From NCBI GenBank assembly GCA_022562895.1, contig JADFOK010000011.1:10851-74850 (forward strand): a stretch of DNA of 64,000 nt, written 5' to 3'. Under the pieces are notes generated by a model. It was not told the DNA's origin. It ran no database searches and saw nothing but the letters and a program-made list of their open reading frames with translations. Positions 50,683 to 52,964 of this stretch are shown here, in pieces. Positions within the stretch are counted from its first letter, which is position 1; each line of letters opens with the position of its first letter. Source of the DNA: Bacteroidota bacterium (GTDB lineage: Bacteria; Bacteroidota; Bacteroidia; Flavobacteriales; Flavobacteriaceae). The position numbers were made by a program, and so were the translations under genes.

Positions 50683-50711
50683 ATTTAAAATTTGAGTAAA
50701 GATAGAATAAA

Positions 50712-50740
50712 AAAAGCCTCTAGATTTCTCAAGAGGCCTT
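50712..50740 (-). terminator. Intrinsic terminator next to distal tRNA-fragment repeat
   Basis: GCCTCT-N10-AGAGGC stem followed by TTTTTTTT on minus strand. Confidence 0.65.
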
Positions 50741-50743
50741 CGA

Positions 50744-50802
50744 TGTAGCGGAAATTGGATTAACTCCCTTGTAATATTTAGTCGTTGATCCGGAATAGGG
50801 AA
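50744..50802. repeat. 59-bp repeat copy A (degenerate tRNA-fMet 3' fragment + hairpin arm)
   Basis: tgtagcggaaattggattaactcccttgtaatatttagtcgttgatccggaatagggaa; 51/59 identical to copy B. Confidence 0.9.
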
Positions 50803-50857
50803 GCTAAATGAGTTTGTGCGTGATTTTTTGAAAGTGCTTGAATTTCAGTTCAATACA

Positions 50858-51298
50858 TTAATTTAGCTCGTTCTCAATTAAACTAATCAACTCCCTTATT
50901 TCTTCCAGAAGCAAGTTCCTATCCCTTAAAGCTGCATCTGTCATATCAAACTTTGTAGCAATAATATTTAAAAAAGTTTGATTTTGAAGTAACATCTCAT
51001 AATTAATTTCATTGCCAGGTATAACATTATATTTACTTATTGCAGCACTAAATAGTCGTACAAAATTGACACCATTAATTATTTCATTATCAATACTTGT
51101 TGTCTGAAGGGTCACCCTATCTCTTAATGTTTCATCCAATTTATTGATGCGGTTTTCCAAAGCAGTAAATTGTATCCGAATATTTTCATTAGAAATTAAT
51201 CCAGTTTTGCCTGAGTTTTTTAAATCCGTATAAGAATTTATTACTGGAGCTTCCTCGAATGCATTTCTTTTAATGCGTATAGTGCTTTGTGGTGGTAT
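50858..51298 (-). pseudogene. 5'-truncated gene remnant (resembles DUF6090-type proteins)
   Basis: 146-codon open frame with no ATG near its start; contains SYTDLKNSGKTGLISNENIR; family call from memory only. Confidence 0.5.
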
Positions 51299-51413
51299 TT
51301 AAATTTTCTGTTTTTTTGATGTTTTTCTGAAGAAAATAGATTTTTTCCTTGAGAATTTATTAAGGAAATTCAGCCGTTATTGATTTTATACGCTGTTGGA
51401 TGCTGCATTTATT

Positions 51414-52034
51414 TTAGAATGAAGCCCTTTTTCTTATTTCTTTATTTTGTTTCTCCTCTTCAATAGTCTCTTTTGATATTTCCTCTATATCTTTTTTCTC
51501 AATTTGTTTTTTTATTGTGAAAGGGTAAAAAATATTAATAAAACTTGATATCGCTAAAAATATAATAATGGTCTGCACCCAATTATTCTCTGCAATATAA
51601 TTCAATAATTCATTTTTTTTCAGATTGTTAAAAGTGTAATATATTATAGATAAGATTAATGCTATTGAAAAGACATAAATAGTATTTCTTCTTTCAGAAA
51701 TTTTCTTTCTTATTCTAAAAGAAAAATAATTTATTTTATGTTCGTTTGATAAGTATTTTATTAAATGAATTTTAAATTTAGATATCTTAACTTCTTTGTA
51801 AAGACCTTCTGTATGAATTTTTTCAATTTGCGATGTGTATTTATTTACTTTTCGAGGATATAAAATCTGAATATAGTTATCATTTTCTTTTTTTAAATAT
51901 TGAATTCCACAACTATACCATTCGTTTTCTATACTAACCTCAGTTACATTCCAAAACATTCCAAATGGATTCCAAAATCTATTGTTTTCATTTTTTGTAA
52001 TTCTAAGATTTTCTTTTCCAACTTTAATATTCAT
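51414..52034 (-). CDS. Hypothetical membrane protein (island cargo)
   Basis: 206 aa, two C-terminal hydrophobic segments, visibly more AT-rich than flanking core genes. Confidence 0.7.
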   Translation of the reverse strand: MNIKVGKENLRITKNENNRFWNPFGMFWNVTEVSIENEWYSCGIQYLKKENDNYIQILYPRKVNKYTSQIEKIHTEGLYKEVKISKFKIHLIKYLSNEHKINYFSFRIRKKISERRNTIYVFSIALILSIIYYTFNNLKKNELLNYIAENNWVQTIIIFLAISSFINIFYPFTIKKQIEKKDIEEISKETIEEEKQNKEIRKRASF

Positions 52035-52047
52035 TTTTTGAGTACTT

Positions 52048-52101
52048 GCAGGTAACGGTTTGGCTAAACTGTGTTTTAATGCAGTTTAGGCTATGTTGTG
52101 C
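52048..52101 (-). repeat. attC-like imperfect palindrome
   Basis: GCACAAC-ATAGC-CTAAACTG-N10-CAGTTTAG-CCAAACC-GTTACCTGC just before the 52034 ATG. Confidence 0.55.
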
Positions 52102-52625
52102 TTAGTTATTTATATTGTTCGATAATGTTTTGAATTAATTGCTCTTTAGCAGTTTTAAATAAGCCCCTAAAATAGTAACTTAAAATTTAATCATTAATGA
52201 TTTATACCGCATAATTTTAATATCCCCCCCTCTAAAAGTATTAAACGCAATATCAGTAATTAGCCCCCCAATCAATTCACCGTAAAAATGTATCTCTTAT
52301 ATAGCAACTTGAGAACCTCAACTTTGTATATGTATATAATATATTTAGTGGATGAGCAATTTTACCTCTTATTCAAGTTTTTGATGGTATTATAATTAAA
52401 TGCGATTTTTCTGCAAAATTTTAAAAATCGATGTTTTCAATAAGAGAAGACCCCCCATCCCAATATTAAGAATTGAGTTCGATTTTTTCAAAGTACCCCC
52501 CTCATTTCTTATTTCAATTTTAACCTCATATAGTGGCTAAATGAGAGGTGTTAATATAAAATCGGGAATATTTCGGGAAGAAAAAAAGCCAACTATTTGA
52601 AAAACAAACAATTAACCTTCTAGGT

Positions 52626-52684
52626 TGTAGCGGGAGCCGGATTAACTCCCTCGTTATATTCGGTCGTTGATCCGGAATAGGGAA
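52626..52684. repeat. 59-bp repeat copy B (exact tRNA-fMet 3' fragment + hairpin arm)
   Basis: ttgtagcgggagccgga at 52625-52641 is 17/17 identical to 52889-52905. Confidence 0.9.
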
Positions 52685-52742
52685 ACTTTACAAGGAAAAC
52701 CATAAATGCATTGCATTTATTTATTTTTTATTTTACTGAATA

Positions 52743-52859
52743 ATAAATGTAAACATCACCATTCTGAAAAATAAATGTAAACATCACCATTCTGAAAAAT
52801 AAATGTAAACATCACCATTCTGAAAAATAAATGTAAACATCACCATTCTGAAAAATAAA
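52743..52859. repeat. Tandem array, four perfect copies of a 28-bp unit
   Basis: ATAAATGTAAACATCACCATTCTGAAAA starting at 52743, 52771, 52799, 52827. Confidence 0.97.
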
Positions 52860-52886
52860 AAACCAGATACTTTCGTATCTGGTTTT
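52859..52886 (-). terminator. tRNA intrinsic terminator
   Basis: AAAACCAGATAC-loop4-GTATCTGGTTTT perfect stem followed by a T tract on minus strand. Confidence 0.85.
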
Positions 52887-52891
52887 CCTTG

Positions 52892-52964
<73 letters not shown>

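Follow-up and report, generated by a model that had tools for sequence, protein, structure and literature searches.

In classical integron attC sites, extra-helical bases matter for the choice of strand, and a segment specific to the integrase IntI is thought to be necessary for reading the folded sites. In 'inverted' integrons, for example those of the Treponema type, intI and the cassettes share one orientation, and the enzyme is a canonical IntI carrying this specific segment. Bacteroidota are regarded as poor in integrons: apart from a single complete integron in Salinibacter, IntegronFinder 2.0 listed only integrases without cassettes (PMC9024848), and integrons in these bacteria have otherwise been mentioned only in passing (PMC8618304). 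In the searchable literature we found no description of the system that we report here from Flavobacteriaceae, whose sites we designate R1.

The window, by which we mean the whole 64-kb stretch of DNA analysed, contains a hairpin that is very probably an attC-type (integron-like) gene-cassette recombination site. A first-pass annotation had pointed to an attC-like hairpin at this place on the minus strand, and we confirmed it, reading its extent as 52048-52103. The minus strand from 52103 to 52048 reads AAGCAC-AAC-ATAGC-CTAAACTGC-ATTAAAAC-ACAGTTTAG-CCAAACC-GTT-ACCTGC, so that AAC and GTT flank two perfect 8-bp arms (CTAAACTG at 52089-52082 and CAGTTTAG at 52071-52064) with short spacers of 5 and 7 nt, also as first annotated. 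The extra-helical base that had been suggested as a possibility is absent, from the R1 consensus as well as from the window copy: the 9-bp inner stem is continuous, and its ninth, loop-closing pair is merely C.A on the coding strand and hence G.T on the opposite strand. This variant is present in 5 of the 73 related copies whose alignment was used to build the covariance model R1. The positions of all features are given in Table 1.

Table 1. Features of the hairpin and of the surrounding segment, in window coordinates.
Feature	Position	Strand	Basis or remark
Complete attC-type cassette recombination site, R1 family (very probable)	52048-52103	minus	Covariance model R1, model positions 1-56
Flank AAGCAC, part of the cassette ending at the R1 site	52098-52103	minus	
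R'' core triplet AAC	52095-52097	minus	At least 90% conserved in the 73-copy alignment
Unpaired 5-nt spacer ATAGC	52090-52094	minus	
L'' arm of inner stem, CTAAACTGC	52081-52089	minus	Inner helix 96% paired across 73 copies
Conserved 8-nt loop, ATTAAAAC	52073-52080	minus	Columns invariant or nearly so in 73 copies
L' arm, ACAGTTTAG	52064-52072	minus	Leading A forms the C.A mismatch on the coding strand
Unpaired 7-nt spacer CCAAACC	52057-52063	minus	
R' core GTT	52054-52056	minus	Predicted crossover between G52056 and T52055
ORF206, cassette gene encoding a 206-aa conserved hypothetical protein	51414-52034	minus	ORF list
Decayed attC of the ORF206 cassette	51275-51406	minus	Aligned with intact sites of about 140 nt of the L160 and L168 homologues
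ORF-less stretch ending in the R1 site	52104-52625	minus	No ORF of at least 50 aa on the minus strand
Direct-repeat copy A	52626-52687	minus	85% identical over 62 nt to copy B
Direct-repeat copy B, upstream of era	50744-50805	minus	
tRNA-Met (CAT), fixed landmark of the variable spacer	52891-52964	minus	ARAGORN; Rfam 63.8 bits

An 8-bp hairpin alone is ordinary here, given that the window holds 46 perfect 8-bp inverted repeats with loops of 6-14 nt; among these 46, only the hairpin at 52048-52103 has AAC and GTT at the right distances. Its exact arms occur once in the 2.3-Mb genome. That single copy had suggested a chance hairpin, a reading overturned by blastn against relatives, in which a match limited to the 45 nt from CAAC to GTT appeared at 79-91% identity in several species of the genus, with the same stretch also present on contig C58 of the source genome. 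The R1 model returned a single match in the window, at 52048-52103 on the minus strand, with 64.5 bits and an E-value of 2e-15, and the other strand scored 11 bits. The real significance of the hairpin thus comes from this comparison and not from the hairpin alone.

The 56-base R1 family runs from YAAC through a 5-nt spacer, one arm of a 9-bp stem, the loop ATTAAAAC, the other arm and a 7-nt spacer to GTTR, with the consensus YAAC, AAAAC, CTAAACTGC, ATTAAAAC, GCAGTTTAG, CCAAACC, GTTR. At 56 nt, these sites lie at or below the lower end of usual attC lengths. Spacer lengths are conserved across the family, and the ATAGC and CCAAACC spacers of the window copy are not mutually complementary. The covariance model gave four matches in the source genome (the window copy and copies on contigs C58, C52 and C63), sites in 15 out of 28 genomes of the genus and sites in 39 out of 151 genera of Flavobacteriaceae, often at contig ends. 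A 22-nt degenerate core pattern, run against a collection of species-representative genomes, found more than 119 stretches among the matches listed, mostly in marine Flavobacteriales, Cytophagales, Chitinophagales and Saprospiraceae, with a few in Balneolaceae, Chlorobiota, Spirochaetaceae and Gammaproteobacteria metagenome-assembled genomes (MAGs).

The window copy belongs to a family whose structure covaries. AAC pairs with GTT in 67-71 of the 73 copies, and both triplets are at least 90% conserved. Paired cells made up 94% of the two-helix structure across the 73 copies, compared with 89% after column shuffling and 17-40% when the partners were slid. Changes on both sides of a pair were seen at six pairs of this structure, four of them in the inner helix, and one whole subtype carries the arms TGTAAAATGC and GCATTTTACA. 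The departures from Watson-Crick pairing were strongly biased by strand: 25 of the 27 non-Watson-Crick cells in the inner helix were A.C or C.A on the gene strand, equivalent to G.T on the opposite strand, and 2 were the reverse. We also folded both strands of the window copy as single-stranded DNA, a check that the first-pass annotation had proposed. The plus strand reached -9.0 kcal/mol (z -3.3, with none of 200 shuffles as good), compared with -5.3 kcal/mol (z -1.4) for the minus (gene) strand. The G.T bias, together with the better fold of that strand, indicates that the strand opposite the genes has been selected to fold, which argues against an RNA element transcribed with the genes.

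The same wobble pairs, in favouring the strand antisense to the genes, weigh against a cis-regulatory element of the downstream gene, be it an operator, a 5'-UTR structure or the terminator of an upstream transcript. We consider such an element highly improbable. Its conserved stem and loop sequence is what a protein-binding site would have, and the hairpin stands 19 nt 5' of the ORF206 start, copies elsewhere lying 15-40 nt before a start codon. The hairpin fails as an intrinsic terminator, however: no T-run comes after its A+T-rich stem, the next bases being CCAAACCGTTACC on the gene strand and GGCTATGTTG on the other. No Rfam family matched at the hairpin with an E-value up to 10, and inspection of both strands by eye for the Bacteroidota promoter motifs TTTG and TAnnTTTG gave no convincing match. 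The genes downstream are, moreover, unrelated from copy to copy, and the complementarity between the flanks of neighbouring sites, described next, would be left unexplained by regulation.

Beyond the window, R1 sites form arrays. Co-oriented sites 0.3-2 kb apart were found in many loci, among them L117, L131, L059, L073, L111 and L054; examples come from two genomes of Tenacibaculum, one MAG each of Saprospiraceae and Algibacter, and one chromosome of Flavobacteriales. Within these arrays, a start codon follows 15-40 nt past each GTT, and the genes are short, co-oriented and without promoters of their own. Related copies bound single-gene cassettes; whether copies flank single variable ORFs was a check that the first-pass annotation had suggested. 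For each pair of sites, we compared the 9 nt after the GTT of one site with the reverse complement of the 9 nt before the AAC of the next. Among neighbouring sites, 21 of the 57 pairs (37%) had at least 7 matches out of 9, rising to 43% for neighbours less than 1.5 kb apart; by contrast, the figures were 1.2% for random pairs from different loci and 5% for the two flanks of the same site. This complementarity is the crossover signature of integrons, in which a cassette holds both halves of the R box, split between G and TT. It also shows directly why the outer flanks of the window copy do not pair, which had been put down, correctly, to the two halves having come from different cassettes.

These observations also bear on a dispersed palindromic repeat, whether REP/MITE-like or a terminus of a transposon that recognises hairpins (IS200/IS605, for example), a reading that we rank as the most remote of those considered. 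R1 is indeed short, multi-copy, structured and conserved in several phyla, and often lies at contig ends, as such a repeat might. Yet its copies share the orientation of the genes and delimit single ORFs, their flanks are complementary in the manner of cassettes and not target-site duplications, and no transposase is associated with them.

In the source genome, contig C25 carries a tyrosine recombinase gene (51490-52425), two ORFs, two attC-like sites with a junction match of 10 out of 10 and then the contig end. The flank past the site on contig C52 (GTTGGCATTC) is the exact complement of the flank preceding the site on contig C63, and the ends of these two contigs code for the two halves of one amidohydrolase. 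The main array of this genome is located on C25, behind an Xer/IntI-like recombinase, with its continuation on three small contigs, C52, C63 and C58. A generic junction finder applied downstream of the recombinases in two related genomes (G001 and G013) gave output that was strand-symmetric and too noisy to be of use.

Downstream of the window hairpin, the ATG of ORF206 (52034) lies 20 nt after the last T of the GTT, with 19 nt between, which corrects the 22 nt originally counted. Searches of ORF206 and of the 100-aa ORF beyond it against Pfam and PADLOC gave no match. Homologues of ORF206, 206 aa long and 46-80% identical, occur in unrelated genomic contexts. In Tenacibaculum aquimarinum (L160) and a metagenome contig (L168), the similarity to the window begins at GTTACCTGC or GTTAGCTAC, and the cassettes end in GCAGGTAAC, followed by a long hairpin site closing in GTTGTG; GCAGGTAAC, the R'' box, is the exact reverse complement of GTTACCTGC, the R' flank in the window. 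On a third contig (L169), the similarity starts at GTTACCTGC and the end is a variant box, CAGGAAAC. The homology of ORF206 cassettes always begins at G/TTACCTGC (the slash marking the boundary) or at a near variant, and the site upstream of the GTT is of a different type in each of the four loci (the window, L160, L168 and L169). Because the ORF206 cassette stands behind four different sites, the GTT in the window is a genuine junction, and a crossover between G52056 and T52055 would place the start of the ORF206 cassette at 52055.

The R1 model gave no matches next to the ORF206 homologues in L160, L161 and L163, as those cassettes carry other site types. The presence of other sites upstream of the homologues in place of R1 is a further point against cis-regulation. 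The claim of a Bacteroidota-type gene-cassette recombination site is supported by the co-oriented arrays bounding single-gene cassettes, the crossover between G and TT and the ORF206 homologues.

The site at the 3' end of the ORF206 cassette itself has decayed. Its 5' half is preserved, along with an R''-like CCAAC (51399-51395), an L''-like GTATAA (51391-51386), an L'-like CTATAC (51282-51277) and an internal hairpin (51344-51368), and we found neither a GTT nor a long-range fold in this window copy. Between the decayed site and era, the 100-aa ORF (50858-51160, minus strand) has no family match and has in-frame stops just upstream; it may be a 5'-truncated gene fragment.

As an attC-type site, the window hairpin would work as follows. 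The plus strand, opposite the cassette genes, would fold when single-stranded into a two-helix hairpin, with AAC/GTT as the outer helix and 9 bp as the inner helix, separated by an unpaired spacer of 5 x 7 nt. A tyrosine recombinase would then cut the GTT between G and TT. The site marks both the 3' end of one cassette, which is ORF-less here and probably decayed, and the start of the next, which comprises ORF206 and a decayed site of its own. Single-stranded DNA would be the substrate, and the window copy might still be able to recombine. Its activity is doubtful, since only one site is intact and its ORF206 partner is decayed. The window contains attC sites without a nearby integrase, one intact and one decayed, and falls into the category of CALIN or single site. 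The window copy is probably a relic: a solitary, well-preserved site beside a decayed partner, away from the main array.

The genes around the hairpin all lie on the minus strand, in the order ABC-F ATPase, small CPXCG protein, tRNA-Met, a tandem repeat of 28 nt, an ORF-free stretch of about 600 nt, the hairpin, ORF206, the ORF of 100 aa, era and der. Between tRNA-Met and era lies a spacer of variable length, 930 bp in G013, 2209 bp here and more than 12 kb in G001. We sought partners for the boxes ACTTGCAGGTAAC (end) and GTTGTGCTTAGTT (start) in the window and the genome and found none near the site, nor was a matching cassette-start box found upstream for the ORF-less stretch, which may be a decayed or non-coding cassette. 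Direct repeats A and B bracket a 1.8-kb segment containing the hairpin and ORF206. A copy of the tRNA-Met 3' end follows repeat A as an exact 16-nt match (52640-52625) and repeat B in degenerate form (50755-50740). In the relatives G013 and G001, the same repeat element lies directly 3' of the tRNA-Met terminator, a placement suggestive of an ancient integration or duplication event at the hot spot. The description of the hairpin as nested inside a tRNA island holds only in part: the hairpin lies in the variable spacer, bracketed by the 62-nt direct repeats, and no integrative-element genes are present between tRNA-Met and era.

Three further observations were made in this segment. Five copies of the 28-nt tandem repeat (52736-52875, with flanks 52703-52886) appear to interrupt the terminator hairpin of tRNA-Met within its 3' arm, and TGGTTTT is duplicated to either side of them; in G013, this terminator hairpin is uninterrupted. 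A 79-nt stretch (52423-52501) with two runs of six to seven G residues (GGGGGGTACTTTGAAAAAATCGAAC...GGGGGGTC) has a 92% identical, non-coding copy at C48:40390-40468. A weak Rfam match to BjrC68 (50705-50777, minus strand; 24.6 bits against a gathering score of 39) overlaps repeat copy B and the terminator just upstream of era and is probably due to chance.

We found no recombinase in the neighbourhood of the window site. A search with the IntI model TIGR02249 (cut-off 265 bits) gave no protein above this threshold in the genus, of which 28 genomes were covered, and 9 out of 11 array-bearing genomes elsewhere were equally negative. The two exceptions were a Balneolaceae genome, whose IntI scored 426 bits, and a Saprospiraceae genome, whose IntI is a pseudogene. 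One tyrosine recombinase family, by contrast, recurs beside the sites, in seven of the loci found with the core pattern (L084, L071, L052, L081, L070, L114 and L080). A recombinase of this family lies upstream of the sites in L084 and 2-7 kb upstream of sites that pass the junction test in Aquimarina (L153) and Algoriphagus (L152). Among 26 genomes of the family, the recombinase gene is co-oriented with the sites and 1-25 kb upstream in G173, G135, G066, G197, G162, G131, G089 and G102, at a greater distance in G104 and G187, and divergent from the sites in G157 and G057. The chance expectation for a recombinase upstream of sites is about 1% per genome, by a rough estimate. These loci link the recombinase to the arrays. 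In draft genomes, the contig often breaks off downstream of the gene, as would be expected if repeats follow it.

The array-linked proteins retain the catalytic motifs R..KGxKDR..HxLRH..Y and are tyrosine recombinases, as are IntI (TIGR02249) and the Xer types (XerC/XerD and the archaeal XerA, NF040815). The array-linked protein is about 33% identical to a true IntI; its score on NF040815 is 229 bits (cut-off 220), and on TIGR02249 it reaches about 200 bits. Unlike IntI, it stays below the 265-bit cut-off and does not have the roughly 40-aa IntI-specific segment at model positions 179-236, which the Balneolaceae IntI has. Most members of the family have an extra N-terminal domain of about 90-100 aa that is absent from IntI; the protein encoded on C25 is without the N-terminal stretch of about 90 aa found in its relatives. 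This Xer/IntI-like recombinase is likely the enzyme that acts on R1 sites, and it is for this reason that we speak of an integron-like system and not of a classical integron. The label also reflects the outcome of the individual tests: most structural ones were passed and two failed, those for extra-helical bases and for an adjacent canonical IntI.

Several features were noted around these recombinase genes. On C25, L153 and L152, we recognised no attI-like site in the interval separating the recombinase gene from the first cassette. A small Cys-rich ORF, 133 aa in the source genome (region C25:51004-54737) and 125 aa in Aquimarina (region L153:6442-8083), is divergent from the recombinase gene and may be a conserved partner or regulator. 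The locus at G131:C1:803000-826000 is unusually complex, with several paralogous genes for recombinases of about 305 aa interleaved with six R1 sites on one strand. In L071 (5865-6241), two nearly identical sites 320 nt apart are positioned upstream, not downstream, of the recombinase gene, at odds with the usual layout.

These data also allow us to weigh R1 sites as ordinary classical attC sites whose IntI has been lost or acts from elsewhere (CALIN/SALIN relics), with the Xer-like recombinase unrelated to them. We regard this as unlikely. The layout and the crossover between G and TT fit the attC pattern, integrase-less arrays are common in the literature (PMC9024848), and both the Balneolaceae genome, with its true IntI and an R1 copy, and the Saprospiraceae pseudogene could be read in this way. 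However, the Balneolaceae IntI is about 970 kb from the R1 copy in its genome, with no R1 sites within 20 kb of it, and no R1 sites were found near the Saprospiraceae pseudogene either. The lack of any protein above the TIGR02249 cut-off in the genus and in most array-bearing genomes argues in the same direction, and the Xer-like recombinase lies upstream of R1 sites far more often than expected by chance.

We see an even balance of probability that a second kind of integron is widespread in marine Flavobacteriaceae and other Bacteroidota, one with an Xer/XerA-like recombinase devoid of the IntI segment and with short hairpin sites free of extra-helical bases, whose solitary sites, such as the window copy, would serve as live docking points for new cassettes, seeding their insertion at chromosomal hot spots. 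Sites of this single family, which shows integron-type cassette shuffling, are present in a quarter of the Flavobacteriaceae genera sampled. Should the linked recombinase be the enzyme, folded sites could be recognised without the IntI-specific segment, and such recognition, if true, would bear on the origin of integrons from Xer-type recombinases; present integron finders would then overlook a large marine cassette pool. For the window itself, the R1 site and the ORF206 cassette explain the small variable insertion between tRNA-Met and era.

R1 thus differs from known systems in several respects. Unlike classical attC sites, R1 sites have no extra-helical bases. Their sequence, loop included, hardly varies between families or even phyla and is far better conserved than is usual for classical attC sites. 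Unlike integrons in general, R1 arrays have no adjacent IntI with the integron-specific segment, and the recombinase gene is usually co-oriented with the array instead of divergent from it. 'Inverted' integrons offer a parallel for this arrangement, in which recombinase gene and array share one direction at most of the loci examined, although the canonical IntI with its specific segment that characterises them is absent from R1 loci. By contrast, the likeness to integron attC sites extends to the order R''-L''-loop-L'-R' with AAC and GTT cores, the unpaired spacer between the helices (5 nt on the 5' side and longer on the 3' side) and the better folding of the strand opposite the genes. As in integrons, the crossover lies between G and TT, so that each cassette begins at TT and is closed by a site of its own, and, as in sedentary chromosomal integron arrays, the genes are short, co-oriented and promoterless, and one and the same cassette is found behind different sites.
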